NCBI GenBank assembly: GCA_028710695.1
Contig: JAQTTP010000005.1
Span: forward strand, 30,001-62,000
DNA from: Candidatus Iainarchaeum sp.
GTDB lineage: Archaea; Iainarchaeota; Iainarchaeia; Iainarchaeales; 0-14-0-20-30-16
Length of the DNA: 32,000 nt
Direction: 5' to 3'
Under the pieces are notes generated by a model. It was not told where the DNA came from. It did not search any database and was given only the letters and a program-made list of their open reading frames with translations. Shown piece after piece: positions 7,885 to 32,000 of the stretch. The translations under genes and the position numbers were made by a program. Every line of letters begins with the position of its first letter. The stretch's first letter is position 1.

Positions 7885-7893
7885 AAAATCACT

Positions 7894-8583: not shown

Positions 8584-8605
8584 TTAAATCATCCTTTTTG
8601 ATATA

Positions 8606-9805: not shown

Positions 9806-9809
9806 ACAA

Positions 9810-10517: not shown

Positions 10518-11035
10518 TTAAAAAACCGCCAGTACAGTTTAGCAAGTATCTTGGTAATTCTCCCGCCAGTTAAACTTTTTTTTGGGTTAGGAAAACTATT
10601 CATAAGTTCTTTAGGATTCCACTTAAATTTCCAATCGGCGGGCCCTGCTAAATCCAAGCCCAAATTTCCTTCTTCAATACTTAACTTTAAAGAATTATAT
10701 ATTAAATAAGAAAACGCATAATATGGACTTTCAGAGTCTATAGATACTCCTTGTATAACCAAATAACCATCTTTAAATTTATAAAGCGCAAAAGAGCAAC
10801 AATATTTATTATTTATAGTATAAATTCCAAAATATCTTCTTTTAAACGGTAACTTAAAGGGGGGCATTAAAAGTCCTTTTCTTTTTCTATACTGCCTTAA
10901 GTTTTTTTTATGCTCATCAAAAATTATCTCTTTAAAGATCAATCCTTCACGAGTACCACGATTAATTTCATGCCTAATATCTTTTGGCAAATTATTTAAA
11001 TTCAACCAATCTTTTTCTAAAACTAATGTTTTCAT
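10514..11035 (-). CDS. Hypothetical protein, possible FemAB/GNAT-fold (Acetyltransf_6-like) domain
   Basis: 173 aa. IRHEINRGTREGL and YYAFSYLIYNSLKLSIEEGNLGLDLAGPADWKFKWNP resemble the C-terminal FemAB-like GNAT signature (..a.e.G...fDfgG...yK..f). GGTGA SD upstream, and a 4-nt overlap with the upstream gene. Confidence 0.4.
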   Translation of the reverse strand: MKTLVLEKDWLNLNNLPKDIRHEINRGTREGLIFKEIIFDEHKKNLRQYRKRKGLLMPPFKLPFKRRYFGIYTINNKYCCSFALYKFKDGYLVIQGVSIDSESPYYAFSYLIYNSLKLSIEEGNLGLDLAGPADWKFKWNPKELMNSFPNPKKSLTGGRITKILAKLYWRFFK

Positions 11036-11070
11036 TCCATCACCAATTATGGGGGGTAACCAATTTATTT

Positions 11071-11826: not shown

Positions 11827-11837
11827 AAAATCACCAA

Positions 11838-13789: not shown

Positions 13790-13863
13790 AATATCACAAT
13801 CTCAAACATTTACTATATATAAATATAATGTATATATTATTTATATCTTATTGGTGAGATTCC

Positions 13864-15042: not shown

Positions 15043-15050
15043 AAAACAGC

Positions 15051-16181
15051 TTATTTCTTGCCCAATTTAGAAATACCAGATTTTAAAATTAGATTGTATT
15101 CTTTTATGAAATCTTTTATAACTATATTCCAATCAAAATCTTTTGCTTTTATTTTTGCAGATACTGCTAATTTTTCACAACTCTTAAAATTGTTACAGAC
15201 ATAAACCATTTTTTTATACAAATCATCACTGTTACCCATTTTAACTTTTAAACCGGTTTTTTCATTTTCTACATAGGGTAAACTAGTTATTATTATTTTT
15301 CCTGCAGCCATTGCTTCTAATAATGCAACTGGTTGCCCAGTTTCAAAGGATGGCAGAACAAATACATCATTGTTCATTAAAAAGGAGGGCATATCTTTAA
15401 CCCACCCAAAAAAGGCCACATTTTTAGTTTTATTAACAACAACAAACTTTTCTAATTCGCTTTTCAATAAACCATCGCCGCCAATATTTAATTTAACATT
15501 ATATTCTTTTGATAATTTGGTATATGCTTCAAAAAGAATTCTAAGCCCTTTTACTTCTTCAAGCCTACCCATAAAAACAAACCTAATTTCTTTCCACGTT
15601 TTATTAGTTTTATTAAAATCACCTAAATCTATAGCATTAGTCATAAGCTTATTATTTAATTTTGGATATTTTTGCAGCATTTCAGTCCTAGAAATTGGAC
15701 TTACAAATAAAACTTTGGACGCCCTTTTTATGGCGAAATCATTTAAAAAATATAAAAACTTTTTTATTGGAAAAAACCAACCTCTCGGCAACCCATGTGG
15801 AGTATAGACTAAGGGGACATTAAATTTATTTTTTAACAAAGCACCAAAAAAGCCACCTACTTGTCCATGCGCATGAATAAGATCTATTTTTTCTGCCTTT
15901 ATTATTTCTTTAGCCTTAAAATATGCTAAAAAGTTAAATGATAGGTTTCTTAAAAAAGTATTATTAATAAATGGAACACGCCAAACTTTTATTTTTCCTG
16001 TTGTTTCATACTTACTTTGATTAGGAAATAGTCGAGTAATTATAAATATATTCTGGTTATTTTTTGCAAGAAATCTACTAAGTTTATCAACATGAATTTC
16101 TATTCCGCCAGATGGTTTTTTCTCAAAACCAGCTCCAGAATGAAAAGGCCATTCTTTTGATCCAATTAAAAGTATTCGCAT
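15051..16181 (-). CDS. Glycosyltransferase, GT-B fold (GT4-like)
   Basis: FETGQPVALLEAMAAGKIIITS, FMGRLEEVKG, and N-terminal GGIEIHVDKLSRFLA. Confidence 0.85.
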   Translation of the reverse strand: MRILLIGSKEWPFHSGAGFEKKPSGGIEIHVDKLSRFLAKNNQNIFIITRLFPNQSKYETTGKIKVWRVPFINNTFLRNLSFNFLAYFKAKEIIKAEKIDLIHAHGQVGGFFGALLKNKFNVPLVYTPHGLPRGWFFPIKKFLYFLNDFAIKRASKVLFVSPISRTEMLQKYPKLNNKLMTNAIDLGDFNKTNKTWKEIRFVFMGRLEEVKGLRILFEAYTKLSKEYNVKLNIGGDGLLKSELEKFVVVNKTKNVAFFGWVKDMPSFLMNNDVFVLPSFETGQPVALLEAMAAGKIIITSLPYVENEKTGLKVKMGNSDDLYKKMVYVCNNFKSCEKLAVSAKIKAKDFDWNIVIKDFIKEYNLILKSGISKLGKK

Positions 16182-17291
16182 TTATTCACCCAACCTTTTT
16201 ATAGTACTAACAACTTTAATTAAATCTTCTTTCTTTAATAAAGGATGAACCGGCAGACTTACAACTTCTTTTGCAAGTTTTTCTGAAACGGGGAAATCTC
16301 CTTCTTTATAACCCAATTTTTGGAATTGAGGATGTAAATGTAATGGTTTAGGATAATAAATTCCAGGGAATATTTCTTGTTCTTTTAATTTTGCAACAAA
16401 GGTATCCCTATTCATTGGAAATTCACTAGTTATTCTAATTGTAAACTGATGCCAACAAGGCTCATGGCCTTCCTCAACAACAGGCAATATTAGCCCCTTT
16501 ATACCCTTCAAATTTTTCAACAGGTATTTTGCATTTTTTTGCCTCTTCTGTGTAAATTTGTCCAACCTATCTAACTGAACTAAAGCAATACTTGCTAAAA
16601 CATCAGTTAATCTATAATTATACCCTAAATCTACATATGCATAATCACCAGATTGTTGCATCCCATGCTGTCTAAATCTTTTTGCCCGTTCCATAACCTC
16701 TTCCGAATTTGTTGTTAACAACCCACCTTCTCCAGACATCATATTCTTAGTCGCATATAAACTAAATGCGCCTGCATTACCTAAATTACCTGCAAATTTG
16801 TCTTTGTATTTAGCATTATGTGATTGACAAGCATCTTCCAAAACTACAAGATTATGTTTCTTTGCAATTGCATTAATTAAATCCATATCACAACACAAGC
16901 CATAAAGATGTATTGGCAAAATTGCTTTTGTTTTTGAAGTTATTTTTTCTTCTATTTTTGTAGGGTCAATGTTAAATGTTTTCTCGTCAACATCTACAAA
17001 AATTGGTTTAGCACCAAGCATAATTGCAGGATTTGCGCTAGCAACAAATGTAAATGGCGTTGTGATTACTTCATCGCCTGATCCTATTCCCAAGCCATAA
17101 AGCCCAGCATGTAAAGCAGCAGTTCCAGAATTTAAAGCCACACAATATTTTGTGCCTACTTTTTCAGCAAATCTTTTTTCCAACTCTGCAACTTTTGGGC
17201 CTTGTGCAAGCATTCCTGATTTTAATACTTCCATTACTGCTTTTCTTTCTTTTACATCCAAATATGGTTTTGAAACCGTTATTTTACTCAT
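16182..17291 (-). CDS. DegT-family aminotransferase, WbpE-like (UDP-2-acetamido-2-deoxy-3-oxo-glucuronate aminotransferase type)
   Basis: LNSGTAALHAGL, DEVITTPFTFVASAN, VLEDACQSHNAKY and FSLYATKNMMSGEGG (PLP Lys). It is contiguous with the WbpD- and WbpB-like genes. Confidence 0.85.
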   Translation of the reverse strand: MSKITVSKPYLDVKERKAVMEVLKSGMLAQGPKVAELEKRFAEKVGTKYCVALNSGTAALHAGLYGLGIGSGDEVITTPFTFVASANPAIMLGAKPIFVDVDEKTFNIDPTKIEEKITSKTKAILPIHLYGLCCDMDLINAIAKKHNLVVLEDACQSHNAKYKDKFAGNLGNAGAFSLYATKNMMSGEGGLLTTNSEEVMERAKRFRQHGMQQSGDYAYVDLGYNYRLTDVLASIALVQLDRLDKFTQKRQKNAKYLLKNLKGIKGLILPVVEEGHEPCWHQFTIRITSEFPMNRDTFVAKLKEQEIFPGIYYPKPLHLHPQFQKLGYKEGDFPVSEKLAKEVVSLPVHPLLKKEDLIKVVSTIKRLGE

Positions 17292-17304
17292 ATATTATCA
17301 CTCA

Positions 17305-17799
17305 CTATTTACCAATTGGAAAACCATTTTTTCCTACTTTCTTAACTACTTTTGCGGGATTTCCAACAACCAAAGAGTATGGGGGTACATCTTTTGTTAC
17401 TACTGCGCCAGCACCAATAACACTATATTCTCCTAAAGTTATGCCACAAACAATTACTGCGCCAGCACCAATTGACACCCCGTCTTTAACTTCTGTTTTT
17501 GTTAATTTATCATCATTCCAGATCTCTGCCCGAGGATACAAATCATTTGTAAAAGTAGCATTTGGGCCGACAAAAACATTATTCCCAATTGTAACTCCAT
17601 GATAAACATTTACATTGTTTTGGAATTTACAGCCATTTCCTATTTTAACCCCAGAATCAACGTACACACAATGTCCAAAAATACAATTCTCACCAATTTC
17701 TGTGTTTTTACATATATGAACAAAATGCCATATTTTTGTTCCTTTTCCTATTTTTGCGCCATCATCACATACTGCAGTAGGATGTATAAAATAATCCAT
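17305..17799 (-). CDS. Left-handed beta-helix (hexapeptide) N-acetyltransferase, WbpD/WlbB-like
   Basis: FIHPTAVCDDGAKIGKGTKIWHFVHICKNTEIGENCIFGHCVYV plus further hexapeptide repeats. Start moved from GTG 17808 to ATG 17799 (GTGAT-4nt-ATG). Confidence 0.85.
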   Translation of the reverse strand: MDYFIHPTAVCDDGAKIGKGTKIWHFVHICKNTEIGENCIFGHCVYVDSGVKIGNGCKFQNNVNVYHGVTIGNNVFVGPNATFTNDLYPRAEIWNDDKLTKTEVKDGVSIGAGAVIVCGITLGEYSVIGAGAVVTKDVPPYSLVVGNPAKVVKKVGKNGFPIGK

Positions 17800-17804
17800 A
17801 AACA

Positions 17805-18794
17805 TCACTTAAAATTCTTTTTCAAACTCTCCAAAAGTATTATCCCATTCAAAGCATCATCTATGCTAACATATGGTTCTTCTGTGCCCGCAATACAACT
17901 TAAAAAGTTTTCAATTTCCATTAAAAGCGGTTCTTTCTTTTCAACAAGTATTTTTCTTTCTTCACCAACAGTAACGCCAGTTAATATTTGCTGATATTCT
18001 ATATTCTCTTTATGTTTCCCATTTTCATAAAAGGTAATTTCCTGGGTAATATAATCTAGGCTCAACAGCCCTTTTTTTCCGCAAATATATAATTTTCTTA
18101 TTTTTGTGGGAGATAAAATATCTGTAGATAAATTTATTACAATATTTTCTTTTGTCTTCATTAAAACTCTTATAATATCTGGATCTTTTTTATTTATGAA
18201 ATTGTGTGTTTGTAAACAAGCATAACTTACACAATCACCCATTTTACCAAGTAAGTAATTTATTATTTCTAAATCGTGTATTCCTAAGTCTGTTAGAACA
18301 TCTACATCTACTACACCTGGTGGATATGGCCCTTGCCTCAAGATATTAATATAAAAAATTTTTCCTAACTCCCCCCTAAAAACAAGATCTATTACTTTTC
18401 TTACTGCTGGATTATATCTTTCAATCTGACCAACAACACAAGTAACTCCTGCTTTTTTAATAATATCTTTAATTTCTTCAGCTTCTTTAACAGATGGTGC
18501 TGCCGGTTTTTCTAGTAAAATATTAATTTTCTTTTGAGCCACCTTTTCCACTATTGCCTTATGCAACATAGTAGGAACACATATTGACACCCCATCTAAC
18601 TGTTCGTTATTCAACATTTCATCCAAATCATAATACGCCTTACATTTGTATTTTTCCGAGAACTCATCACATTTTTTCTTATTAGAATCACATATTGCAA
18701 CTAGTTCAACATCTGGCCTTTCAAAATAAATTCTTGCATGGTTTTTTCCCATATTTCCAACACCAATTACTGCAATTTTTGGCACATTACTCAT
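17805..18794 (-). CDS. Gfo/Idh/MocA NAD-dependent oxidoreductase, WbpB-like
   Basis: KIAVIGVGNMGKNHARIY Rossmann motif and ILLEKPAAPS. AGGTGAT SD 4 nt before the ATG. First gene of the minus-strand glycan operon. Confidence 0.85.
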   Translation of the reverse strand: MSNVPKIAVIGVGNMGKNHARIYFERPDVELVAICDSNKKKCDEFSEKYKCKAYYDLDEMLNNEQLDGVSICVPTMLHKAIVEKVAQKKINILLEKPAAPSVKEAEEIKDIIKKAGVTCVVGQIERYNPAVRKVIDLVFRGELGKIFYINILRQGPYPPGVVDVDVLTDLGIHDLEIINYLLGKMGDCVSYACLQTHNFINKKDPDIIRVLMKTKENIVINLSTDILSPTKIRKLYICGKKGLLSLDYITQEITFYENGKHKENIEYQQILTGVTVGEERKILVEKKEPLLMEIENFLSCIAGTEEPYVSIDDALNGIILLESLKKNFK

Positions 18795-20194: not shown

Positions 20195-20665
20195 TTATTC
20201 TTTTACAATTACACAAATTTCCCCAATAAAACAATCTTTATTTAGGATGTATTCCAGGATATATTCCTTACCAAGCCTATGTGCCTTACTAGCTTTAACT
20301 TTTACTTCACAAATAACTGCTTTATTCTTTATTAGTATTGGTTTTTTGGTAAATATTGTAAAACTCTTGCTTATAACTTCGCCAAGTTCTTCTTTTGTCT
20401 TTTTGTTTTTTAAACAAAAAAAGGCAACTAAGGACTGTGAGATAATAGACAATGCAGAATTAATATGTAAATTAATCCCAAAAGGATTATTCTTATCTTC
20501 AAAATATTTGGTAAAAATGGCCTTAGTTTTTATTGATTTCTTTGTCAGATCCAAAAAACACAGATTAAAATGTTCTTTTTTTACACCTTTAGATAGATAC
20601 AATGATTGTATATTTTCGTTTAATAAACTATTTTTTTTAGGTACACAAAAAACCATACTAATCAT
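20195..20665 (-). CDS. Hypothetical protein coupled to porB (possible hotdog-fold)
   Basis: 156 aa. Its ATG overlaps the porB TGA (ATGA at 20662-20665). A central hydrophobic helix (INSALSIISQSLVAFFCL) is followed by alternating beta-like segments. No motif I can name with confidence. Confidence 0.5.
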   Translation of the reverse strand: MISMVFCVPKKNSLLNENIQSLYLSKGVKKEHFNLCFLDLTKKSIKTKAIFTKYFEDKNNPFGINLHINSALSIISQSLVAFFCLKNKKTKEELGEVISKSFTIFTKKPILIKNKAVICEVKVKASKAHRLGKEYILEYILNKDCFIGEICVIVKE

Positions 20666-21597
20666 TTCTTTCCCAACACTTTGAATTCTTTATCCACTTC
20701 TTCCTGGACTTTTGCTATCAAGTTTTTCCTTAACTCTGGCTTGAACAAGTGGGCATAAAGCTTGTGTGATTTAAGATACTCTTCTACAGGCAGGGCCTTC
20801 TTTGGGTTATAATTTATCTTGTATTTTCCGCCCTCGATCTCATACAAAGGCCAAAAGTTCGTCTCTGTTGCAAGCCTAGCAACATCATAAGTCTTAGAAC
20901 TTGGGAACTTCCACCCATAATTACAAGGCATTAAAACGCTCAAGAATTTCGGGCCCTCATAGCTCAAGGCTTTCTTTATTTTATAAATAAAATCATCTAA
21001 ATATGCAGGATTTGCTTGTGCTGCATAAGGAATATTATGTGCAGCCACAATAGACATTATGTCCTTCCTCTTCTGTGCTTTTCCAGTACTCTCTAAGCCC
21101 GCAGGAGTAGTGGTTGTACTTGCTAAATAAGGTGTTGACCCACTTCTTTGCATTCCTGTATTAGAATAAGCAGCATTGTCATAAAGAACATATAAAATAT
21201 CATGCCCTCTTTCAAGCATTCCTGACAGGGCTTGTAATCCAATATCTACTGTCCCCCCATCACCTGCAAAAACAATGAACTTATACTTTTTCTTTAATTC
21301 TCCTCTCTTTTTCCTGGCAGCATATGCCCTTTCTACACCCGCAAGAGTAGAGGCAGAGTTTTCAAAAGCATTATGTATACAAGATACTCCAAAGCTTGTA
21401 TGGGGCCATATTGTGCTAGTAACTTCTAGGCATCCAGTAGCAATAGACACCACGGGCTCACAATCATCAGGCACATTTCCAAGCACAGTTCTAACTATTG
21501 TGGGTATGAAACATCCAGAACAGGTTCTATGCCCTGGCCCAAAACCTTCTTTCCCTTTTTCCCAAATCTTCTGCAATTCGTTGCCTTTTACATCCAT
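20662..21597 (-). CDS. porB: 2-oxoacid (pyruvate):ferredoxin oxidoreductase, beta subunit (TPP-binding)
   Basis: GHRTCSGCFIPTIVR, ATGCLEV, and FAGDGGTVDIGLQALSG (TPP motif GDG). Start moved from GTG 21606 to ATG 21597 (GTGAT-4nt-ATG). Confidence 0.9.
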   Translation of the reverse strand: MDVKGNELQKIWEKGKEGFGPGHRTCSGCFIPTIVRTVLGNVPDDCEPVVSIATGCLEVTSTIWPHTSFGVSCIHNAFENSASTLAGVERAYAARKKRGELKKKYKFIVFAGDGGTVDIGLQALSGMLERGHDILYVLYDNAAYSNTGMQRSGSTPYLASTTTTPAGLESTGKAQKRKDIMSIVAAHNIPYAAQANPAYLDDFIYKIKKALSYEGPKFLSVLMPCNYGWKFPSSKTYDVARLATETNFWPLYEIEGGKYKINYNPKKALPVEEYLKSHKLYAHLFKPELRKNLIAKVQEEVDKEFKVLGKK

Positions 21598-21612
21598 AAA
21601 AATCACTTTGCC

Positions 21613-22752
21613 TTAATTTTTTAGATCTTTCCTCAGCCCATAGAACTGGAACTTCTTTTGCTTCCCTTTCAAGAATTTGCCCACTAGATCTTTGGCTTCT
21701 TCTAGCCCAAAGTCTCTTCCGCCAATTCCATAAACAACATTATAGAACTCTCTTCCCATACCTTGGAACTCTAAACCCATTGGCCCAAACTCTGCGCCAT
21801 GGCTTATTGCCCTATCCAAAACAATTATCTTTTTGCCTTTAAGCTCTGCCCTTAACTCATTATAAGGAAACGGCCTATAAACTCTTGGTCTCAAGCACCC
21901 AACTTTTTTTCCTTTTTTTCTCAATTCTTGGCAAGTCAACTCTATTGCTTGATAAGAAGAGCCCATTGTTACAAAGACAGTATTTGCATCTTTTAACCCG
22001 TAAGACTCATATAAGCCATAATTTCTTTTTGAAAATTTCTCAAATCCTTTTTGAATTCCAAGTATTGATTTTGATGAGTTTGCAAGATCTCTCCACTGCC
22101 TTTCTCTTACTTCTATATTAGAATCAGTTAAAGAAACATTTCCAAAAGTTATTTTTGAATCAAGCATGTTCGGCCACTTTGGTTTCTTTCCCACAAAATT
22201 CACAGCCTGTTTGGTGGACAAAGTATCAATCACCTGCTCTCCATGGGTAGTATAGAATCCATCCATCATTACCATTACTGGTATTTTTGTTTCCTCAGTA
22301 ATCTTCACAGCCATTAAAGTAGTGTCATAAACTTCCTGCACATCTTTACAATAAATTTGTATCCAGCCAGAATCTCTTGCCAAAAAACTATCGGAATAAT
22401 CACAATGCAGAAGAAGTGGAGCACCTATTCCTCTATTTCCCACAACCATAGTCATAGGCAGTCTCAATCCCGCAGCAATATAAATCACTTCAATCATATA
22501 TGCCAAACCTTGAGATGCGGTAGCAGTAAACACTCTTGCACCTGCAGCACTTGCTCCAATACAAGCAGACATTGCACTATGCTCCGATTCTGCAAGAATA
22601 TTTTCAGTAGTAACTTTTCCATCAGCAACATATTTTGAAAAGGTTTCAATGATCTGTGTTTGGGGGGTAATAGGATATGATGCACAAACATCAGGGTTTA
22701 TCTGCATCATTGCATATGATACAGCATAGTTTCCGTTTATCAGAGCCCTCAT
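21613..22752 (-). CDS. porA: 2-oxoacid (pyruvate):ferredoxin oxidoreductase, alpha subunit
   Basis: MRALINGNYAVSYAMMQINPDVCASYPITPQT and SEHSAMSACIGASAAGARVFTATASQGL. Start moved to ATG 22752, which has GAGGGTG upstream and lies 2 nt after the porD stop. Confidence 0.9.
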   Translation of the reverse strand: MRALINGNYAVSYAMMQINPDVCASYPITPQTQIIETFSKYVADGKVTTENILAESEHSAMSACIGASAAGARVFTATASQGLAYMIEVIYIAAGLRLPMTMVVGNRGIGAPLLLHCDYSDSFLARDSGWIQIYCKDVQEVYDTTLMAVKITEETKIPVMVMMDGFYTTHGEQVIDTLSTKQAVNFVGKKPKWPNMLDSKITFGNVSLTDSNIEVRERQWRDLANSSKSILGIQKGFEKFSKRNYGLYESYGLKDANTVFVTMGSSYQAIELTCQELRKKGKKVGCLRPRVYRPFPYNELRAELKGKKIIVLDRAISHGAEFGPMGLEFQGMGREFYNVVYGIGGRDFGLEEAKDLVGKFLKGKQKKFQFYGLRKDLKN

Positions 22753-22754
22753 CT

Positions 22755-23024
22755 TTACACCCTCTTCATTTCTATTACTTTCTTCAAATAATTTGCACAA
22801 ATTCCACAGCCCTTACAAAACTTATAATCTATGTGTGAATACTTTCCACCAACATAAACTATTGCTGCTTCCGGACAATATAATGCAATTTCAACATGTT
22901 TATTCATTTCCTCTTTGTCTTTAACAACAGGAATCTCTTTTCTCCAAGATCCAGTTTGATATTCTTCTGATTCACTTGCAAGTATTCTTGCACCCAAATC
23001 CACTTTCTTAATTTCTTTAACCAT
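22755..23024 (-). CDS. porD: 2-oxoacid:ferredoxin oxidoreductase, delta subunit (ferredoxin-like, apparently single-cluster)
   Basis: GSWRKEIPVV...YCPEAAI...IDYKFCKGCGICANYL. It sits between porG and porA. Start moved from GTG 23033 to ATG 23024. Confidence 0.85.
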   Translation of the reverse strand: MVKEIKKVDLGARILASESEEYQTGSWRKEIPVVKDKEEMNKHVEIALYCPEAAIVYVGGKYSHIDYKFCKGCGICANYLKKVIEMKRV

Positions 23025-23029
23025 AAAAA

Positions 23030-23566
23030 TCACTTAAATTGGGTATATGCCTCATTTAAAGCTTTAAGATTTCCGTCCAATAATTCTGGTTTCTTTGATA
23101 AGGTTTCTTTTACTGCTTTTTCTAAATTTGCAAATTTAACACAAGTTGTCATCTTCAAAAGAGCGCCAAGCATAACTACTCCAGGAAGGTCCTTTTTCAA
23201 GTATTTATTTGCAATTCCAGATGCATCGATGAATACACTATTTTTTATTTCTGGATTTATTTTTCCATTTATCAAAAGTTTTGCTTTCTTTTGGTTCAAA
23301 ATTAAATTCTTGGTGTCAAGTTGTGATAACAAAGAGCCATCCAAAACAACTACATAGTCTGCTTGCGTTATGGATGCTTGGTCTTTTATTTTTTCTTTAG
23401 AAATTTTTACAAAAGCCCTTACTGGTGCACCACTTCTTTCTGGGCCATACTCAGGAAATGCTTGCACTTCCAAGCCTTGTAAAAATGCTGCTTTTGCAAG
23501 TATTTCTGCAGCAGTTTTTACACCTTCTCCGCCACGACCCCAGAACACAAAACTAGTATAAGACAT
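23030..23566 (-). CDS. porG: 2-oxoacid:ferredoxin oxidoreductase, gamma subunit
   Basis: FWGRGGEGVKTAAEILAKAAFLQGLEVQAFPEYGPERSGAPVRAFVKIS. Confidence 0.9.
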   Translation of the reverse strand: MSYTSFVFWGRGGEGVKTAAEILAKAAFLQGLEVQAFPEYGPERSGAPVRAFVKISKEKIKDQASITQADYVVVLDGSLLSQLDTKNLILNQKKAKLLINGKINPEIKNSVFIDASGIANKYLKKDLPGVVMLGALLKMTTCVKFANLEKAVKETLSKKPELLDGNLKALNEAYTQFK

Positions 23567-23727
23567 AGTACCACTTATATAACTATAAACAAGGAATAAT
23601 AAAGAGATTAATGTTTAAATACCTTTCTGGATTTTGCAAATGGGGAAAATATCAGCAATAGTTAAGAACAGAATTAAATTCAAAAAGCATATTAATAGAA
23701 GAAAAATAATTTTGTGACTTTATTATG

Positions 23728-24375
23728 TCACTCTTTTCTGACAATTGTTATTGTCCAGCCTCTTTTACCATAACCCTTGTAATATTCTTCAACTTTAAAG
23801 AATTGCGATAGTAGATTAGTCATATTTAACCGATCTATCATCTGAACATACGGCTTAGTCTGATCTTTCTTTTGTTTTATTTTTTTATCATCATCATAAT
23901 CTGCAGTATTCGAGGAGTATACTAAACCATATCCACCTTTCTCTAAAATATCCGACATTTTTTCTACAACATATGGCGCCATTGAAGAATCAAACTGGTT
24001 CAAAAAAGATCCAGCTACCAAACCGTGGAATTTTTCTTCAGGTTCCCATTCTAAAAAACAGTTGTTGTAGAACTTTGCTTTAGGGCTATTTTGTTGAGCA
24101 TGTTTTATCATTTCTTTAGACACATCAACACAGGACACATTAAAGTCATACTTAAAATGTTCTGTAAGTATGAACGAGTTTAATCCAACTCCACATCCAA
24201 GGTCAGCAATTCTTGCACCAGTTCCAAAATTAGAGTGAACCTTTTCTGCAAATGGTTTTATCACTTTGTATTGATTGTCTACGAAATTTACCCACCTAGA
24301 GTTATAATCGTCGGCCAACAAATCGTAGTACTCCACCAATTGTTTTTGGCTTTTGTTAATTTGTTTTCCGCACAT
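23728..24375 (-). CDS. Class I SAM-dependent methyltransferase
   Basis: IADLGCGVGLNSFIL (motif I), VSCVDVSKEMI, and LEKGGYGLVY. Confidence 0.8.
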   Translation of the reverse strand: MCGKQINKSQKQLVEYYDLLADDYNSRWVNFVDNQYKVIKPFAEKVHSNFGTGARIADLGCGVGLNSFILTEHFKYDFNVSCVDVSKEMIKHAQQNSPKAKFYNNCFLEWEPEEKFHGLVAGSFLNQFDSSMAPYVVEKMSDILEKGGYGLVYSSNTADYDDDKKIKQKKDQTKPYVQMIDRLNMTNLLSQFFKVEEYYKGYGKRGWTITIVRKE

Positions 24376-24396
24376 GTTTATAATATAATTTCAATA

Positions 24397-24408
24397 TTTA
24401 TAAAGGGC
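24397..24408 (-). promoter_or_regulatory. Putative BRE/TATA (minus reading GCCCTTTATAAA) for the 23728..24375 methyltransferase, probably a leaderless mRNA
   Basis: The TATA centre is ~25 nt upstream of ATG 24375. Same CC-TTTATAAA core as the three other sites. Confidence 0.5.
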
Positions 24409-24477
24409 TTGGTTTTATGTATAGAAAGACCAAAAAAAAGCACACGGAAACAAATCGATTTTTGCAAGTAGATGTCA

Positions 24478-24522
24478 AACGGGAACAAACTTTCCCGTTA
24501 GAGTTGGCGCCATTTATGGCGC
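24478..24522. other. Two adjacent GC-rich perfect hairpins of unknown function
   Basis: aacgggaa-caaact-ttcccgtt (24478-24499, 8 bp) and gcgcca-ttta-tggcgc (24507-24522, 6 bp). Flanked by A8 at 24432-24439 (U8 on the minus strand) and by T7 runs at 24549-24555 and 24560-24566 (plus strand). Confidence 0.5.
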
Positions 24523-24652
24523 GGGTTATGGAAAATAAACAATTTGACTTTTTTTGTTCTTTTTTTATCCACCTTAGATTAATTAAAACTAGAATATCCC
24601 AAATCCTTTGGGTTTGTGGATATGCCCCCTTTTCTTTTTTGGTGAACTTATG

Positions 24653-24678
24653 CTTTTTTCTTTTGGAAAAGAAAAAAG
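24653..24678 (-). terminator. Perfect 12-bp A/T palindrome plus U-tracts, a terminator-like element after the candidate ncRNA
   Basis: cttttttctttt-gg-aaaagaaaaaag. On the minus strand it begins 8 nt after the ncRNA 3' stem and reads CUUUUUUCUUUU. Confidence 0.45.
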
Positions 24679-24686
24679 AATAGAGT

Positions 24687-24879
24687 GGCAGGTAAAACGG
24701 TATACACAAGAGCATCTGGGACTACGGATATATACTCCCGGAATTGACCGCGCAAAAGACAGCAGATAAAATCTGCCCCAACATACAGCAAAGCACATGG
24801 CATGAAGCCAGAACGCTTGTTTGCATATCCTCACTGCGCCGTTTGCAAATCTCACGAGGAGATTTAGAGGTTACCTACC
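24687..24879 (-). ncRNA. Candidate structured ncRNA of unknown family (~193 nt)
   Basis: A GC-enriched island in an AT-rich spacer. A 9-bp terminal stem pairs GGUAGGUAA (24879-24871) with UUACCUGCC (24695-24687). Four internal hairpins lie at 24846-24866, 24788-24824, 24761-24777 and 24718-24739. Three helix-closing pairs are G.U on the minus strand but A.C on the plus strand. A TATA sits ~26 nt upstream and oligo-U downstream. Confidence 0.55.
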
Positions 24880-25069: not shown

Positions 25070-25104
25070 GTGTAGTCTATGATTTCGTGTGTAGTCTTTG
25101 ATTT
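25070..25104 (-). repeat. Tandem 16-nt direct repeat in the 23S 3' trailer
   Basis: gtgtagtctatgattt (25070-25085) and gtgtagtctttgattt (25089-25104) differ at 1 position, with period 19. The second copy abuts the 23S helix-1 3' strand. Confidence 0.6.
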
Positions 25105-28040
25105 TAAAGGTCCTCTTATGCTATTAGTACTGGTCAGCTGAATATCTCGCCGAAGCTCGATACTTACACTTCCAGCCTATCAACCCAGTCTTCTACTGGC
25201 GCATTAGTCTGTCCGAAGACAGAGTGACGATCTATTTTCAGGGGGGACTTCAAGCTTAGATGCTTTCAGCTTTTATTCCTTACGGCGTGGCTACCCAGCG
25301 CTGCCCTCCCGGACAACTGGTAGACTAGAGGCCGCGACCTTTTGTTCCTTTCGTACTAGAAAGATCTTCCCTTCAGATCATCAACAGTCCCAACAGATAG
25401 TAAACAAACTGGCTCGCACCGTTCTTAACCCAGCTCACGTACGGCTTTAATGAGTTAACCCCTCCACCCTTGGCTGCTTATGCACAGCCAGGATGCCATG
25501 AGCCGACAACGAGGTAGCAAACCGCGGGGTCGATATGTACTCTTGCCCGCGACAACCCAGTTACCCCCAGGGTAGCTTCACTATCAGACCAGACTGCCAC
25601 CAAAGCAGTACTGACGATCATTAAGCCCTTCTTTCGAATCTGCATTCCTTGTTTTGCAGAACACAGTCAAGCCTGCTTTTGCCCTTACACTCGACAGGAT
25701 GTTCCTAACACCCCTGAGCAGACCTTTGGGTTCCCCTGATACCTTTTCAGGGGAGTACCGCCCCAGCCAAACCACCAACTCTGCAGGTGTCCCCCTTTCG
25801 GGGTGAGTCTTAGAATTTCTAAAGGTTAGTGTCCCATTGACGTCTCCACAGTTCCTGACGAAACTGCTTCGAAGACTACTAACTACGCTGCACATCAAAA
25901 ATTCTAAAACAGCAACAGATTGTGGTAAAGTTCCGTGGGGACTTCACCTCCCATTGGGACGCCGTGGCATATTCACCACGCAGTGGGTTCGTCGAGTTAT
26001 AGTTAGGGACAGTGGGAATCTCGTTACTCCATTAATGCAAGTCGGCATTAAACCGACAAGGTATTACGCTACCTTAAGAGCCTCAGAGTTAGGCCCGCTC
26101 TTTACCAGCGCTTAGACCCCTTGAAAAGGGTTTTCACGTACTGGCAGTGAGCAGAAGTCGGCCCCTATACTAATCTTTTCAGACTCGCAGGGACCTACGT
26201 TTTTGATAAACAGTCGGACTCCCCTTGTTAGTGTCACCTACAGTTTACACAACTGCAGGCACCCCTTATACCAAAGATACGGGGCTATTTTGCCGAATTC
26301 CCTTAACTATATTCTCTCGATACGCCTTGGCCTTCTCAGCCAGGGGCACCTTTCCCGGTTCTCGGTACGATCTGATGGAATCCTTATGATCTTTCTTTTC
26401 ATGGTTACCAGGTGTGAAAAACAGCTTTCGCCCCATCACCTCTTAAAGCCCTTCTCGTCATTATAACTCTCCAGGCTTATATTAGGATTGGATATTCTGG
26501 GAAGAATACGTTTTCTAACCCAATAAGTCAAAAGATCATCTATTGTTACCAAGTTGTATCCATCAGGTACAGGAATATGAACCTGTTTCCCTTTCCCCCC
26601 ACTCGTGTTACGATGGGGGTTAGGATCGACTAACCCTTAGCTGATGATCAGTGCTAAGGAACCCTAGCCCTTTCAGCGGAGAGGGTTCTCACCTCTCATA
26701 GCTATTACTACCGCTAGGATCAATATTCCATATAGGTCCACAAGAACTCACGCCCTTGCTTCTGCCCTATAAGAAAACCTTCTTACAAGATATTACATAC
26801 AATGCAATCTGCATGGTATCGGTGGTCTGTTTTAGCCCCGTATATTTTTGGTGCCCTCACTCTCGGAAGGTGAGTTGTTACACACTCTTTAAATGATAGC
26901 TACTTCTGAGCTTACATTCCCTCTGTCTTAGAGTAAAGACGCCCTTTATTTGCACTTAACAGACACTTTGGGACCTTAACCACGCGCAGGGTTGTTTCCC
27001 TTTCGGACCGGAAGCTTACCCCCCGGATCCCAACTCCAACCTTCTTAGACAAATGGCGATTCGGAGTTTAACAAAAAAGCCGAGGATCTCTCCCCAATAC
27101 TTTTTGATCAGTGCTCTACCCACCATTTCGTCTCAGGTCAAGCTAACCTTAGAGCTATTTCAGAAGGAGCCTGCTATCACCAAATTCGCATAGATTATCG
27201 CTCCCACTCCCAGGTCACCTAAACAGTTAGTCTAGAACTAGAAACGGACCTCCACCCCTTTGTAAAAGGGTTTCATCCTGCCCAGGAGTAAATCATTTGG
27301 TTTCAGGTCTGGTATCTGTGACTAAAGACGGATTAGCATCCTTGTCCTCACTAAAAGTTGCGACAACTCGGTTTCCCTACGCCTACGAGGTTTAACCCCT
27401 TAAGCTTGCCACAGACACAAATTCCCTAGCCCGTGCTTCGTGACGAACGACGTAACACTGTACAGAGCGCTTCGTTACCTTAGGCGCTCTACCTTTTGTG
27501 CCGCGTCCACCTATTACCATTTGGTTTCAGGTGCTTTTAACTCCCTACCAAGGGTGCTTTTCAACTTTCCCTCACGGTACTCGTTCGCTATCGGTCTTGG
27601 AAGAATGTTTAAGATTGGGGGTTGGTAACCCCCGTATTCATACGCAAATGCCAATGCGTATTACTCTCGGTTACTATCGGATCTTTCTCTCTTATAACTA
27701 AGGGGCTATCACCCGCTATGGCGCTTCTTTCCAGAAGTCTTCGTCTTAAAGAGTTAAGACCCTAACTAGACCTCACCACATCTCCCACTAATTTCTTAGA
27801 GGGATTCAGTTTGTCTTCTGCCCTTTTCCTTCGCCAGTACTAGGGGCATCGCGATTGCTTTCTTTTCCTGCAGGTACTAAGATGCTTCAATTCCCTGCGT
27901 CTCCCCCCCTTTCGGGGTAATTCGGGTATCTCTGGTTCAATGGTTGCGTGCACCTCGCCAGAGCTTTTCGCAGCTTGCCACGCCCTTCTTCGGCTTCCAA
28001 GCCAAGTCATCCACCAAATGGTTCACTAGGACCCTTAACA
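25104..28040 (-). rRNA. rrl: 23S rRNA (~2.94 kb)
   Basis: Reverse complements of conserved blocks are present: gcttagatgctttcagc (25254-25270 = GCUGAAAGCAUCUAAGC), the SRL at 25347-25360, the PTC block at 25500-25570, and ccctcacggtactcgttcgctatcggtc (27569-27596). The ends form helix 1 (28028-28038 pairs with 25104-25114). End coordinates are good to a few nt. Confidence 0.93.
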
Positions 28041-28148
28041 CTTTACTTGCCTATGCTAACTATGTGTGATATAAATATCACGAGTTACGCCAGAACAAAA
28101 AAACTTGTTCTAACTACTCATAACTCTCGGAAAGTCCATATTTACATA

Positions 28149-28256
28149 TGGACTCAGCGGGAATTGAACCCGCAGCCTCGGCCTTACTCGCAGCCCCAGA
28201 ATAAATTCTGGAGTATTGATGCAAGGGCCGCGCTCTCCCAGTTGAGCTATGAGCCC
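28149..28256 (-). tRNA. tRNA-Ala(UGC): tRNA-Ala(UGC) with a 35-nt intron at the canonical 37/38 position; no encoded CCA
   Basis: The reverse complement reads GGGCUCA UA GCUC AACUGGGA GAGC G CGGCC CUUGCA [35-nt intron] A GGCCG AGGCU GCGGG UUCAAUU CCCGC UGAGUCC A. It has the G3:U70 alanine identity pair and occupies the standard archaeal 16S-23S spacer position. Confidence 0.9.
28185..28219 (-). other. tRNA-Ala intron (35 nt)
   Basis: UCAAUA CUCCAGAA UUUA UUCUGGGG C UGCG AGUA. It has an internal 8-bp hairpin, and UGCG can pair with anticodon nucleotides U34-A37, giving a relaxed bulge-helix-bulge arrangement. Confidence 0.7.
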
Positions 28257-28269
28257 GTAGACTGTTATT
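28257..28269 (-). other. 16S processing-stem strand (3' flank)
   Basis: gtagactgttatt is the perfect reverse complement of aataacagtctac at 29863-29875. It abuts the tRNA-Ala 5' end. Confidence 0.7.
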
Positions 28270-28289
28270 AAACAATTACGAAAATTCAG

Positions 28290-29771
28290 AAGGAGGTGAT
28301 CCGTCCGCAGGTTCCCCTACGGACACCTTGTTACAACTTAGCCCTCCTCACGAAACAAGAAATCGAACTACCATTGAAGTAGCCCTCATTCTAGCCTCAT
28401 TCGGGTGGCTTGATGGGCGGTGTGTGTAAGAAGCAGGGACACATTCACCGCGTGATAGTGACACGCGATTACTAGGGATTCCAGCTTCATGAGAATGAGT
28501 TACAATCCTCAATCCGAACCTAGACCGAGTTTCACGGATTACCTCCCCCTCTCGAGTTCGATACCCATTGTCTCGGCCAATGTATGCCGCGTGTTGCCCA
28601 GAAGATTCGGGTCATACAGACCTATCGTCGCCCACCCCTTCCTCTAGATTGCTCCAGCTGTCCTTTCATAGTGCGCCCTTCCGAAGAAAGACTAGCAAAA
28701 GAAAGCATGGGTCTCGCCCGTTGCCTAAGTTAATAGGACACCTCACGGCACGAGCTGACGATGGCCATACAGCACCTCTCAGCGTGTCAGGTAACCCCAT
28801 CAGAGTGACCATCATCCTGCTGTCGCCCCTGGTAAGTTTCTTTGGCGTTGTATCCGATTAAACCGCAGCATCCACCCCTTGTGGTGCTTCCCCGCCAATT
28901 CCTTTAAGTTTCAGCCTTGCGACTATACTCCTCAGGCAGCAGACTTAACGGCTTCCCTACGGCACCCCGCAAATCCAAGATTAACGGGACACCTAGTCTG
29001 CAACGTTTACAGCTAGGACTAACCGGGTATCTAATCCGGGTCGCTCCCCCAGCTTTCATCCCTCACCGTCAGGTCCGTTCTCGTAAGTCGCCTTCGCTAC
29101 TGGTGGTCCTCTATGGATTATCACATTTCACCGCTACCCATAAAATACCACTTACGTCTCCCGGCCTCTAGTCAAGTAGTATTCTCTGCAATTCAACAAG
29201 TTAAGCTTGTCAATTTCACAAAGAACACACTAAACAGGCTACGGATGTTCTAGGCCCAATATCCACGAGTACCACTTGTGGAGCACGTATTACCGCGGCG
29301 GCTGGCACGTGTCTTACCCTCCACTTATTCGCCAAGTTATTTACACTTGACAAAAGCTAGAAAACTAGCACTAGGAATCCCCCTATCGCGCTTTCGCGCA
29401 TTGTAGAATTTTCGCGCCTGCTGCACCCCGTAGGGCTAGGGGCCTTTTCTCAGTCCCCTTCTCCGGGCTCCCCCTTGCAGGGCCCGTACGGATCTCAGGC
29501 TTGGTGGGCCATTACCCCGCCAACAACCTAATCCGACGCAGACCCATCCTAAGGCGCCAGCAAGAAAAGGCTTGCTGACTTTAATAAAAAGAGCATCCCA
29601 GCTTCAATTTACTATGAGGTATTACTCTCAGTTTCCCGAGCTTAACCTCTCCTCAGGGTAGGTTGTCCACGTGTTACTGAGCCGTTCGCCGAAGGTATCC
29701 ATATACCTTCCAGACTTGCATGGCTTAGTCGAATTCCTATAGCAGTACTCTCCAGCGGGATCAGCTGGAAT
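28290..29771 (-). rRNA. rrs: 16S rRNA (~1.48 kb), archaeal type
   Basis: The 3' end is ...GGAUCACCUCCU (reverse complement of aggaggtgatcc at 28291). The 5' end is AUUCCAGCUGAUCCCGCUGGAG (29771 downward). The 515 region is GUGCCAGCCGCCGCGGUAA (archaeal). The anti-SD matches the GGTGAT motifs upstream of the genes. Confidence 0.95.
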
Positions 29772-29862
29772 CATATCGCAATATTAGTCTAAAAACATTC
29801 AGAAATTGGTTTAATTATACACACATTATATTTGGTTAAAAAACTTTCGTTGTGTTCTTACC

Positions 29863-29875
29863 AATAACAGTCTAC
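29863..29875 (-). other. 16S processing-stem strand (5' leader)
   Basis: A perfect 13-bp complement of 28257-28269, located 91 nt upstream of the mature 16S 5' end. Confidence 0.7.
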
Positions 29876-29980
29876 ATCCTACCTAAAATACCTTAGGTAA
29901 TCATGGGATGGTTCTCAAAAAATGAGAAAACCAACAAAAAAGCACAGCAAAAATCTTTTGCTATGAAGTTTTTATAAAAT

Positions 29981-30010
29981 ATAAAGGGACACAAAAGCTT
30001 TATAAAGGTT
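29981..30010 (-). promoter_or_regulatory. Putative tandem rRNA promoters (minus reading AACCTTTATAAA and CCCTTTATAT)
   Basis: tttataaaggtt at 29999-30010 has the same core as 18909 and 24902. A second tataaaggg lies at 29982-29990. The predicted starts leave a ~170-200 nt leader containing hairpins (29880-29897, 29946-29962) and the processing-stem strand. Confidence 0.5.
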
Positions 30011-30101
30011 TTCGGCTTATTCATTATGTAGATTGAAGTGTCAAGGCTAATTTTTAGTTCATTATTTTAGTCACAAAGTAAACAAATTAGTAAAGTTTTG
30101 T

Positions 30102-31148
30102 CTATTCCGCCACAACTCTATTTCTTCCTTGTTCTTTTGCCTTATACAATCTCTCATCCGCCAAAGACACCAAAAGGTCAGGACTTGCTTCCTCAGCTTC
30201 ATTAACACTAGCAACCCCTATACTTATAGTTACTTTACCTACCGAGAACTCAGAGTTATCTATTGCTGACCTAAGCCTCTCCCCAACAAGCTTTGCACCT
30301 TCTTTGTCACAGCTTAAGAGAACAATAAATTCTTCTCCACCCCAACGACAAAGGAAATCTTGGCCTCTTCCAGGTCTATTTCTTAAACTACTAAACAGAA
30401 TCTTTGCTAATTTTCTAAGAACTATATCCCCGTTAAGGTGGCCATAGGTGTCATTGATGTTCTTGAAATGGTCTATATCTATTATTAATAAGGAGAATAC
30501 TGCTTTGGTTTTTTTGTAATCTTCTAACTTGTCATTAAAGTTTATTTCAAAAGAACGTCTAATCGAAACTTTAGTCAAAGGGTCCAACTGTTTGTCTATT
30601 ACAGATGCAATAAACCGCCCAATAGATGCAAAATATATTGCAGAGATTAGAAGCATTGTCTTTATGTCTTCTCCATACTTTAATTTTTTTAGTAGAAGAT
30701 TCTTGCCTTTTATTATTACAATTCCAATAACAGAATCATTGAATACAAGAGGAACCAATAGAGTGCTTTTATCAAACACCGAGTTAATTAGAACTTTAGT
30801 ATATCTAAAATTATGTGGTACCATATTATAGGCATAAATTATATTCTTCTTGCCTTTTGGATAAAAATAGATTATTTCTTTGTCCTCAATTGATTTTAGA
30901 ATATAATAATTCTCAGGAGTTATCTGATTCAAATCCATTTCTTCCAAATGGCTTGTAGTCTTAGTTCTATTCGCCAAACATACAAGAGTATCTTTATCCA
31001 GCAAATAAACTCCAATATTTTCTACATCCTTCAGGGTATCCATTATTAATTCCGATACTCTGCTTAAGTTGGTTTCATATTTAGAACTCAAGAGTGTACT
31101 CAGGGTATAAAGTTCTTTTGCAAGGGCCCACCCCCAAATTTTTTGCAT
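30102..31148 (-). CDS. GAF-like sensor / GGDEF diguanylate cyclase
   Basis: DIDHFKNINDTYGHLNGD, RGQDFLCRWGGEEF (RxxD I-site plus GGEEF), ISIGVASV, and ADERLYKAKEQGRNRV. The N-terminal LVPLVFNDSVIGIVIIKG is GAF-like. Start moved from GTG 31157 to ATG 31148 (AGGTG-6nt-ATG). Confidence 0.88.
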   Translation of the reverse strand: MQKIWGWALAKELYTLSTLLSSKYETNLSRVSELIMDTLKDVENIGVYLLDKDTLVCLANRTKTTSHLEEMDLNQITPENYYILKSIEDKEIIYFYPKGKKNIIYAYNMVPHNFRYTKVLINSVFDKSTLLVPLVFNDSVIGIVIIKGKNLLLKKLKYGEDIKTMLLISAIYFASIGRFIASVIDKQLDPLTKVSIRRSFEINFNDKLEDYKKTKAVFSLLIIDIDHFKNINDTYGHLNGDIVLRKLAKILFSSLRNRPGRGQDFLCRWGGEEFIVLLSCDKEGAKLVGERLRSAIDNSEFSVGKVTISIGVASVNEAEEASPDLLVSLADERLYKAKEQGRNRVVAE

Positions 31149-31157
31149 TAATGACAC

Positions 31158-32000
31158 CTATAGGAAGAATGAAAAAATAAATAAAATTATTAGAACTAAA
31201 ACGTCTACATATAACATAGCACGATATAGTTTATATATTCTCCCCCCAAGTGTCGAAAATGATTTTGTAAAGATTAAAAATAATAACAAAAATAAGAAAG
31301 CACAGAATATTGTCAGATATGATCCAAATACAGTATCCAAAAACTCAATAACTGCTACAGAAAATAAAGACGGAATAGCAAGAACTATCAAAACTACAAG
31401 AGCAATCAATGCAACTTTTTTTATCTTCACTTTGTAATAATCTACAAAGGATGCAACTACAAGCTCGAACAAGGAAATTGCCGAAGTAAATGCTATCAAA
31501 AAAATCAGCAAGAAAAATATTGGACCCAAGAAAACTAGATCTTTAAAGGCCATAGTCAAAACATCAAAAACCAATCTTGGCCCAGAAGCCAGGTCCAAAC
31601 CATAACTAAACAAAAAGGAATAGATAATAATTCCAATCAAAACTGATATTAAAATACTAGAAAAAACTACGGCCCCAATTGTAAAGTTTAGGTTTTCTTT
31701 TTTTGAATAACTTGCATAAGTTAGCAGAATCCCAAATCCCAAAGACAAAGAGAACAGAGCATGTGCAAACGCAAGAACGATCGTCTTCAAAGATATTGCA
31801 GATGCATTAAAACTAAACATATATTTCACCGCAGTCCCAAAGCCTGGGCTTGCCACAGCAAAATATAATAAAACAAATAAAAATATCACAAACAGCACAG
31901 ATGAAATATAGTTAACTACATTAACCCCTTTCTTAAGTCCAAATCTTACTGCCAAATAAATTAAAAATACAGTAATAAAAAAAGCAGCAAACATCAACAC
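31158..32000 (-). CDS. Sodium-dependent transporter, NSS/SNF family; C-terminal part only, with the 5' end outside the window
   Basis: AFAHALFSLSLGFGILLTYASYSKKENL matches the NSS TM6 signature (G.AFFSLSLGFG...TY.SY). Multiple TM helices. The frame is open to the window edge and stops with TAG at 31158. Confidence 0.75.
   Translation of the reverse strand: MLMFAAFFITVFLIYLAVRFGLKKGVNVVNYISSVLFVIFLFVLLYFAVASPGFGTAVKYMFSFNASAISLKTIVLAFAHALFSLSLGFGILLTYASYSKKENLNFTIGAVVFSSILISVLIGIIIYSFLFSYGLDLASGPRLVFDVLTMAFKDLVFLGPIFFLLIFLIAFTSAISLFELVVASFVDYYKVKIKKVALIALVVLIVLAIPSLFSVAVIEFLDTVFGSYLTIFCAFLFLLLFLIFTKSFSTLGGRIYKLYRAMLYVDVLVLIILFIFSFFL

Follow-up and report, generated by a model that had tools for sequence, protein, structure and literature searches.

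Reviews and censuses treat cyclic di-GMP (c-di-GMP) as essentially absent from Archaea, and ask whether the GGDEF genes in metagenome-assembled genomes are real or contamination (PMC5847659, PMC10086821, PMC8646023). A 2018 census listed one archaeal GGDEF protein, Methanocella arvoryzae CAJ37382, together with a receiver (REC) domain joined to a degenerate GGDEF domain in Ca. Micrarchaeum acidiphilum, and raised the possibility that such genes are contamination (PMC5847659). A 2021 study counted >300 archaeal GGDEF BLAST matches, many of them Asgard and DPANN (PMC8646023), and a 2022 essay held that GGDEF proteins on archaeal contigs still need confirmation (PMC10086821). The gene described here encodes a GAF-like/GGDEF protein on a 32,000-nucleotide stretch of DNA (the window in what follows) from the tiny, uncultured Candidatus Iainarchaeum sp. 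(assembly GCA_028710695.1, contig JAQTTP010000005.1, positions 30,001 to 62,000 of the forward strand; source lineage Archaea, Nanobdellati (DPANN), Iainarchaeota). Earlier archaeal GGDEF proteins are functionally uncharacterised, as is this one (PMC5847659, PMC8646023); where their authenticity has been questioned or their domain is degenerate (PMC5847659, PMC10086821), the window gene has every catalytic residue intact, is under purifying selection and, in several independent assemblies, stands 330 bp away from the gene for an archaeal 16S rRNA. A literature search found no paper characterising an archaeal GGDEF enzyme of this kind. The original prediction, made from the sequence letters, had called archaeal GGDEF genes rare and functionally uncharacterised; the second half of that statement stands, while the BLAST matches just cited mean that archaeal GGDEF sequences are no longer extremely rare in databases. 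The reading favoured here, which we hold to be likely, is that of a soluble diguanylate cyclase, gated by a ligand and inhibited by its product, whose gene is co-transcribed with that of a Na+-dependent transporter and genuine in Iainarchaeota.

Among described enzymes, Dcsbis (PA2771) of Pseudomonas aeruginosa (4zmu, 4zmm) has the same order of parts: GAF domain, linker helix and GGDEF domain with an inhibitory site (I-site). The full-length AlphaFold model of the window cyclase (pLDDT 83) finds this GAF-GGDEF cyclase (4zmu) as its best PDB match (E 9e-18, 357 aligned columns, 26% identity), and the two GGDEF domains agree at a TM-score of about 0.88, normalised to the target. The difference lies in the sensor and the setting. 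A GAF domain of the Dcsbis type is recognised by Pfam, whereas the sensor of the window cyclase is not and is almost without relatives outside DPANN; unlike Dcsbis, the window cyclase also has an archaeal host and probably shares an operon with an NSS transporter.

PleD of Caulobacter crescentus (1w25, 2v0n) shares the active-site (A-site), guanine, phosphate and I-site residues position for position. It is activated through phosphorylation of its REC domains and has the I-site RAID (the PDB chain corrects the RSID quoted in the original prediction), whereas the window cyclase has a GAF-like input and the I-site RGQD. Structural neighbours of the N-terminal domain include Lcd1, a Leptospira GAF-GGDEF protein with a cAMP-binding GAF (5w10), and the GAF domains of free methionine-R-sulfoxide reductases (fRMsr; 1vhm, 3ksf, 4mn7), found by Foldseek at E 4e-5 to 9e-4 and 11-16% identity. 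These offer precedents for binding a nucleotide or a free amino acid derivative. None of their ligand-contacting or catalytic residues is matched in the window domain; the catalytic cysteines of fRMsr are not conserved in the family, and Cys57 occurs only in some orthologues.

The gene and its parts are laid out as follows.

30102..31148, minus strand: coding sequence of the predicted GAF-like/GGDEF diguanylate cyclase, complete, 348 aa plus stop (open reading frame; Pfam, TIGRFAM; exact-sequence match)
30675..31148, minus strand: predicted divergent GAF-fold sensor domain, residues 1-158 (AlphaFold models, Foldseek)
30588..30674, minus strand: predicted linker (signalling) helix between GAF and GGDEF, residues 159-187 (DSSP on models)
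30108..30584, minus strand: GGDEF catalytic domain, residues 189-347 (Pfam; PDB sequence matches; structural matches)
30426..30479, minus strand: DIDHFKNINDTYGHLNGD, residues 224-241, with the metal-binding Asp and the guanine-specifying Asn232 and Asp241 (PleD mapping)
30357..30368, minus strand: RGQD, residues 261-264, primary I-site RxxD (PleD mapping)
30327..30341, minus strand: GGEEF A-site motif, residues 270-274 (read from the sequence)

The ATG is taken as the start because all five orthologues begin there, with MQK or MQN at the same position; three codons further upstream, an in-frame GTG (31157) directly adjoins the stop of the preceding gene. Upstream of the ATG, at a distance of 7 nt, stands a Shine-Dalgarno-like element, AGGTG, to which the 3' terminus of the local 16S (...GATCACCTCCT) is complementary. 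The GGDEF cyclase that had been proposed at 30102-31148 is borne out by matches far above the cut-offs, to Pfam PF00990 (E=3.4e-40, 137.9 bits against a cut-off of 23.8; residues 191-347, profile positions 3-161 of 161) and to TIGR00254 (E=9.3e-44, 149.1 bits against 37.4). By exact-sequence look-up the protein is identical to NCBI MDD4983842.1, deposited as a GGDEF protein of Ca. Iainarchaeum, which shares one 62,980-bp contig with the GatE protein MDD4983819.1. DSSP places the linker helix at 159-187 and 162-188 in two AlphaFold models. The helix ends at a DxLT turn (D189-P-L-T192) in which D189, L191 and T192 do not vary among 47 GGDEF proteins.

The catalytic domain was compared with PleD residue by residue, using the PleD chain sequence taken from the PDB; 60 of the 121 aligned residues are identical. 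The corresponding positions are:

D224/I225: PleD D327/I328, metal binding
K229: PleD K332
N232 and D241: PleD N335 and D344, guanine recognition
R261-x-x-D264: PleD R359/D362, primary I-site, five residues ahead of GGEEF
R268: PleD R366
G270-G-E-E-F274: PleD 368-372, A-site
R291: PleD R390, secondary I-site arginine
K338 and R342: PleD K442 and R446

All the phosphate and transition-state positions of PleD (R366, K442, R446) are thus matched, by R268, K338 and R342. GGEEF and the metal-binding D224 are invariant in all three alignments, including those of the five orthologues and the DPANN relatives, and no catalytic residue varies among the five orthologues and three distant DPANN relatives or within the alignment of seven family proteins. 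The Ser/Thr signature of Hypr enzymes, which make cyclic GMP-AMP (cGAMP), was not found: the position is Asp241, invariant in all relatives aligned, and an Asp at the PleD D344 position excludes the Hypr (Ser) variant. The closest solved proteins by sequence are 3ign, GcbC, DgcB, DosC, WspR, DgcZ and PleD (E 1e-26 to 1e-21), all active diguanylate cyclases, and GGDEF-domain structural matches reach TM 0.8-0.9, normalised to the target. The I-site has the expected spacing, RGQD being followed by FLCRW and then GGEEF. The catalytic hallmarks read in the original prediction, among them the Asn/Asp pair of a non-Hypr enzyme, and the RGQD I-site five residues before GGEEF therefore hold at the level of single residues. 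RxxD is kept in four of the five orthologues, the fifth (P0004) having KNLD; it is absent from the more distant relatives P0131, P0132 and P0134, so that within the seven-protein alignment it is limited to the Iainarchaeal branch. By every sequence test applied, the protein belongs to the I-site-bearing GGDEF diguanylate cyclases; its predicted architecture is that of GAF-GGDEF enzymes such as Dcsbis.

The N-terminal sensor domain is recognisable at the level of fold and not at the level of sequence, which divides the original assignment of a GAF sensor into a part that stands and a part that does not. No Pfam family matches residues 1-190 at E <= 0.1, GAF (PF01590, PF13185, PF13492) included. 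Comparison by hhalign with nine Pfam-verified GAF modules of GAF-GGDEF proteins gives a non-significant probability of 25% over 36 columns, which correspond to an "S-x-L-x-x-P-L ... I-G-v-i" strand pair, and a PDB profile search with the domain returns only sub-threshold matches to fRMsr-type GAFs (E 0.05-0.6). GAF sequences in the alignment could bias a structural model, and residues 1-190 were therefore modelled from the five orthologues alone. This AlphaFold model (pLDDT 75.6, pTM 0.77) has unchanged secondary structure, and all of its top 50 PDB matches in Foldseek are GAF domains (best E 1.2e-5, TM 0.5-0.66), including phytochrome GAFs, fRMsr, the PtsP GAF, NifA-like GAFs and the Lcd1 cAMP-GAF. 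In the models the domain consists of an N-terminal helix (2-21), a helix, two strands, a helix and five strands. On these models, residues 1-158 are a highly divergent GAF-fold sensor. The stretch most conserved among orthologues is the first helix (residues 1-28), where model confidence is low; packing of this helix in a dimer interface would fit. The monomer models predict the parts that would enable a dimer (GAF-like domain, 29-residue linker helix, conserved N-terminal helix), in an arrangement resembling dimeric GAF-GGDEF enzymes.

The second line of evidence concerns the genomic setting, in which the rRNA operon is a taxonomic anchor physically linked to the cyclase.

29772..30101, minus strand: 330-nt spacer from the cyclase stop to the 16S gene (sequence; collinear in other assemblies)
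25104..29771, minus strand: archaeal rRNA operon (Rfam, ARAGORN)
28291-29771, minus strand: archaeal 16S (Rfam, 1357.6 bits)
28149-28256, minus strand: intron-containing tRNA, probably Ala(UGC) (ARAGORN, introns allowed)
25104-28038, minus strand: archaeal 23S (Rfam, 2564.2 bits)
1893-3731: GatE

The archaeal context that had been read from the letters (16S, 23S, intron-containing tRNA, GatE) is confirmed by these features. The order NSS transporter, GGDEF gene, spacer and archaeal 16S is collinear in independent NCBI (GCA_964480435.1), ENA, JGI and Logan assemblies, counted among contigs that extend far enough and comprising four sequence-distinct lineages. One continuous blastn alignment runs from the transporter through cyclase and spacer into the 16S at 100% identity in locus L091, 88% in L092 and L094, 82% in L008 and L009, and 68% in L001-L004 and L099. 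The cyclase has four orthologue clusters, at 93, 87, 64 and 59% protein identity, and the 16S identities to the window of 98.2, 93.9 and 92.4% track cyclase identities of 87, 59 and 64%, respectively. Beyond the orthologues, similarity falls to 40-48% and is confined to the GGDEF domain; all matches with a named source are bacterial, most being unnamed, and no bacterial protein is >48% identical. The dN/dS ratio is 0.06-0.2 in both protein halves, with dS saturated, which argues for strong purifying selection on sensor and catalytic halves alike. Composition is host-like, in agreement with the shared AT-rich composition noted in the original prediction: GC is 34.2% against 32.3 +/- 3.7% in 22 other window genes, and GC at third codon positions (GC3) 30.1% against 24.8 +/- 5.0%, both within about one standard deviation. 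On the contigs of L001 and L002, a family B DNA polymerase of archaeal type is encoded upstream. In the P0003 lineage a class I S-adenosylmethionine (SAM) methyltransferase gene lies between cyclase and 16S (L005 5848-6564; L006 1646-2380), so the linkage of the two does not rely on a single join.

These observations bear directly on the account in which a bacterial GGDEF gene and transporter were wrongly joined to an archaeal rRNA operon in assembly or binning, a worry that the original prediction itself had raised. Ribosomal RNA operons are conserved repeats at which assemblers frequently mis-join, the homologues of cyclase and transporter outside the family are all bacterial at 35-48% identity, and the published doubts about archaeal GGDEF matches concern the same issue (PMC5847659, PMC10086821). 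A mis-join would have to recur, however, in different assemblers and projects and in four lineages whose junctions have diverged to 88, 82 and 68% DNA identity, while the cyclase changed in step with the 16S, kept a low dN/dS and a host-like GC and GC3, and left no close bacterial counterpart; the polymerase upstream in L001/L002 and the intervening methyltransferase in L005/L006 also stand against it. Chimeric joining or contamination is effectively excluded on these grounds, and such an artefact is given almost no weight here. The combined evidence argues that the cyclase gene genuinely belongs to the chromosome of a DPANN archaeon, Candidatus Iainarchaeum sp., and that the SNF-GGDEF pair is inherited vertically across roughly genus- to family-level divergence within Iainarchaeota. 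The protein was already auto-annotated in GenBank; what is newly supplied, and well established, is its archaeal authenticity and its conserved genomic partner.

That partner is the gene immediately upstream.

31158..32000, minus strand: 3' part (280 codons) of an NSS/SNF Na+-dependent transporter gene (Pfam SNF), which in full runs past the window

The full transporter has 407 aa, and the full-length copy in L091 matches NCBIfam Na_transp. Its stop lies 9 nt before the cyclase ATG (5-9 nt across all lineages), so that transporter and cyclase probably form one operon. The transporter adjoins the cyclase in 11 of 11 archaeal loci reaching that far, as against 0 of 80 bacterial GGDEF loci (10-kb flanks). 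The bacterial loci come from a whole-protein contig scan that yielded bacterial GGDEF loci only, at 30-46% identity, dominated by the motifs CRWGGEEF and LYKAKEQG. Transporter identity is 91, 85 and 59% across the lineages, parallel to that of the cyclase, and then drops to ~35%, where the few named matches are Bacteroidota NSS transporters. From its synteny and parallel divergence, the pair is best described as a conserved, lineage-specific unit. Amino acids are the substrates of those prokaryotic NSS transporters that have been characterised to date. The most economical hypothesis suggested by synteny is that the sensor would read the intracellular level of the transported solute.

Several smaller observations belong to this locus. 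The NSS/SNF transporter had been missed as a conserved partner in the original prediction. A terminator-like hairpin with a T-run lies 3' of the cyclase at 29965-29943 (pattern scan). Sigma-70 promoter predictions were set aside, a bacterial model not being meaningful for an archaeon. Neither the transporter nor the cyclase has a PADLOC match, and a defence-system reading was rejected for that reason.

The sensor domain defines a small family. An exhaustive search of 1.84 billion cluster representatives with the N-domain profile gave four matches: P0003, which belongs to the cyclase's own family, and the distant P0131, P0132 and P0133 (E 3e-7 to 6e-4), all three with the same N-domain plus GGDEF architecture. 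One of the distant clusters includes P0134, named as a Candidatus Micrarchaeia archaeon (lineage DPANN). By this search the sensor domain appears almost private to DPANN, and distant versions of the sensor plus GGDEF architecture occur, on the naming of these sequences, in Micrarchaeia-type DPANN archaea. In a neighbour-joining tree of 125 GGDEF domains the Iainarchaeal clade has 98% bootstrap and its union with the Micrarchaeia-like relatives 0%, so common ancestry of the DPANN architecture is suggested by the N-domain alone. The nominal nearest neighbours in the tree are 357-aa membrane GGDEF proteins from pig-gut bacteria. No donor lineage can be named, because that union is unsupported and these neighbours are only ~47% identical. 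The family presumably traces back to bacteria.

A second, different conserved neighbourhood is seen in this GAF-like/GGDEF family. The genes for P0131 and P0132 are divergently adjacent to genes for 216-217-aa triosephosphate isomerases (L100 421-1074, L101 551-1201), for which the best NCBIfam model is PRK04302, presumably the short archaeal form of the enzyme.

From conservation and synteny we infer how the system might work. The divergent GAF-fold domain would bind a small ligand, and the signal would pass through the long linker helix; this helix and the conserved N-terminal helix probably pair up in a dimeric coiled coil. The coiled coil would position two GGDEF domains, so that two GTP could be condensed to c-di-GMP at the GGEEF half-sites. 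c-di-GMP bound at the RxxD I-site (R261/D264 with R291) might then feed back and inhibit synthesis. Since the cyclase is probably co-transcribed, and probably also translationally coupled, with the upstream NSS/SNF transporter, it may report the availability of the transporter substrate, possibly an amino acid. The mechanism itself is probably conventional; the unusual features are the archaeal host, the orphan-like sensor domain and the transporter operon.

Possible c-di-GMP partners were looked for in the surrounding DNA. In the window, Pfam was run on the transporter fragment and on 26 of the 27 non-overlapped open reading frames (ORFs) of at least 90 aa; none of these has an EAL, HD-GYP or PilZ domain, in agreement with the original reading of the window, and Rfam finds no c-di-GMP riboswitch in the 32-kb window. 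The ~30 kb of related-contig flanks, covered by precomputed Pfam annotation, and the 5 kb beyond the window start likewise yielded no EAL, HD-GYP, PilZ or c-di-GMP riboswitch. This absence is weak evidence, because the DNA scanned amounts to ~3-6% of a roughly 1-Mb genome.

Several points weigh against the favoured reading of a ligand-gated, product-inhibited cyclase. The pathway is without a visible sink or receiver in the window and flanks. c-di-GMP was not detected in the two archaea assayed, Haloferax and Sulfolobus (PMC8646023). Feedback inhibition is, on the alignments, not a family-wide constraint, since P0004 has KxxD and the Micrarchaeia-like relatives are without the I-site. The GAF assignment comes from predicted structure, at TM 0.5-0.66 and 11-16% identity, while sequence methods are non-significant, and synteny is the sole source for both the ligand and the transporter link.

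A competing account is an archaeal and active orphan of bacterial origin, without dedicated archaeal effectors, in which c-di-GMP is no intracellular messenger and the product acts outward on bacterial neighbours or hosts of the cell or has a non-signalling role. In its favour, DPANN genomes are reduced and the cells often live in association with partners, the scanned DNA holds no phosphodiesterase or receptor domains, and the closest GGDEF domains beyond the clade are those of bacteria. An orphan of this kind fits poorly, however, with the strong purifying selection on sensor and catalytic halves across 6-8% 16S divergence, with the tightly conserved transporter operon, and with an I-site kept in most members, which is sensible only if intracellular product levels matter; moreover, the silence on effectors comes from the small inspected fraction of the genome. 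We regard the orphan as unlikely, though it is the strongest of the competitors. A GGDEF domain with some other activity (synthesis of cGAMP or c-di-AMP, hydrolysis of nucleoside triphosphates, or nucleotide-binding regulation of the transporter) is less likely again. Precedents exist in the Hypr GGDEFs and in the YybT ATPase (PMC8646023, PMC10086821), and the transporter pairing is unusual in a locus where known c-di-GMP partners are lacking; yet Asp241 (not Ser) and Asn232 are present, GGEEF, the metal-binding Asp and Lys338/Arg342 are canonical and invariant, and no known determinant of a diguanylate cyclase is degenerate.

A diguanylate cyclase gated by its sensor and restrained by its product therefore stays the likely reading. 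A wider proposal is more tentative, and we consider it possible without thinking it probable: c-di-GMP would be a native second messenger in Iainarchaeota and Micrarchaeia-type DPANN, made by a lineage-specific family of GAF-like/GGDEF cyclases, received by effectors unrelated to the bacterial PilZ, EAL or HD-GYP proteins and, in Iainarchaeota, wired through the NSS transporter to nutrient uptake. If true, c-di-GMP signalling would reach into the third domain of life, and receptor types still to be discovered would be implied.

The question of authenticity that surrounds archaeal GGDEF genes is answered by this locus about as well as sequence data allow, because 330 bp separate the gene from an archaeal 16S in several independent assemblies, and because the gene diverges together with that 16S, is under purifying selection and keeps every catalytic and allosteric residue. 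The protein is compact (348 aa) and predicted to be soluble, and so is a practical candidate for testing archaeal c-di-GMP synthesis. The conserved NSS transporter and the DPANN-restricted sensor offer concrete entry points to the search for the input signal and, possibly, for c-di-GMP effectors of new classes. The interest lies less in the mechanism than in making archaeal use of c-di-GMP directly testable.

The remainder of the window holds features of separate interest. A 15-kb surface glycan cluster occupies 3798-18794 and includes a UDP-GlcNAc 2-epimerase, a UDP-sugar dehydrogenase, a flippase-like Polysacc_synt protein, two DegT aminotransferases, three SAM methyltransferases, three or four GT4 glycosyltransferases, a polysaccharide deacetylase, a hexapeptide acyltransferase and a GFO/IDH oxidoreductase. 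Among the classic outputs of c-di-GMP in bacteria is the synthesis of exopolysaccharide. Very large ORFs stand beside GatE: in the window a 758-aa ORF (3-1892, minus strand) runs off the window start, and in L104 (4636-10243) a 1115-aa ORF has Cys-rich DUF4215 repeats. Both are probably surface or adhesin-like proteins. The window also encodes an Obg-like GTPase and subunits of pyruvate:ferredoxin oxidoreductase.

Between 16S and 23S, the spacer tRNA measures 108 nt and has a 35-nt intron; ARAGORN misses it by default and calls it Thr(agt) when introns are allowed. It reads ...CCCTTGCAT..., with TGC at the anticodon position and a G3.U70 pair in the acceptor stem, and for these two reasons tRNA-Ala(UGC) is its most likely identity, the intron being placed immediately 3' of the anticodon. 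The corresponding tRNA of the P0004 lineage covers 177 nt, which points to a longer intron there. The 23S gene of that lineage (L001 13259-16923; L002 12011-15151) is also ~730 nt longer (3665 against 2935 nt in the window) and holds a 166-aa LAGLIDADG homing-endonuclease ORF, which indicates an rRNA intron absent from the window 23S. The 16S-tRNA-23S operon is without a 5S rRNA gene, and Rfam finds none elsewhere in the 32-kb window.

A methyltransferase gene also lies 3' of the window 23S, at 23728-24375. Past the 23S, the genes of L092 (7972-12674) and of the window (20195-24715) are wholly different, despite 88% identity from cyclase to 16S. L092 encodes an SNase, a phosphoribosyl pyrophosphate (PRPP) synthase and a radical SAM protein where the window has the methyltransferase and the pyruvate:ferredoxin oxidoreductase subunits. 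This change of gene content points to a rearrangement breakpoint at the rRNA operon between close relatives.

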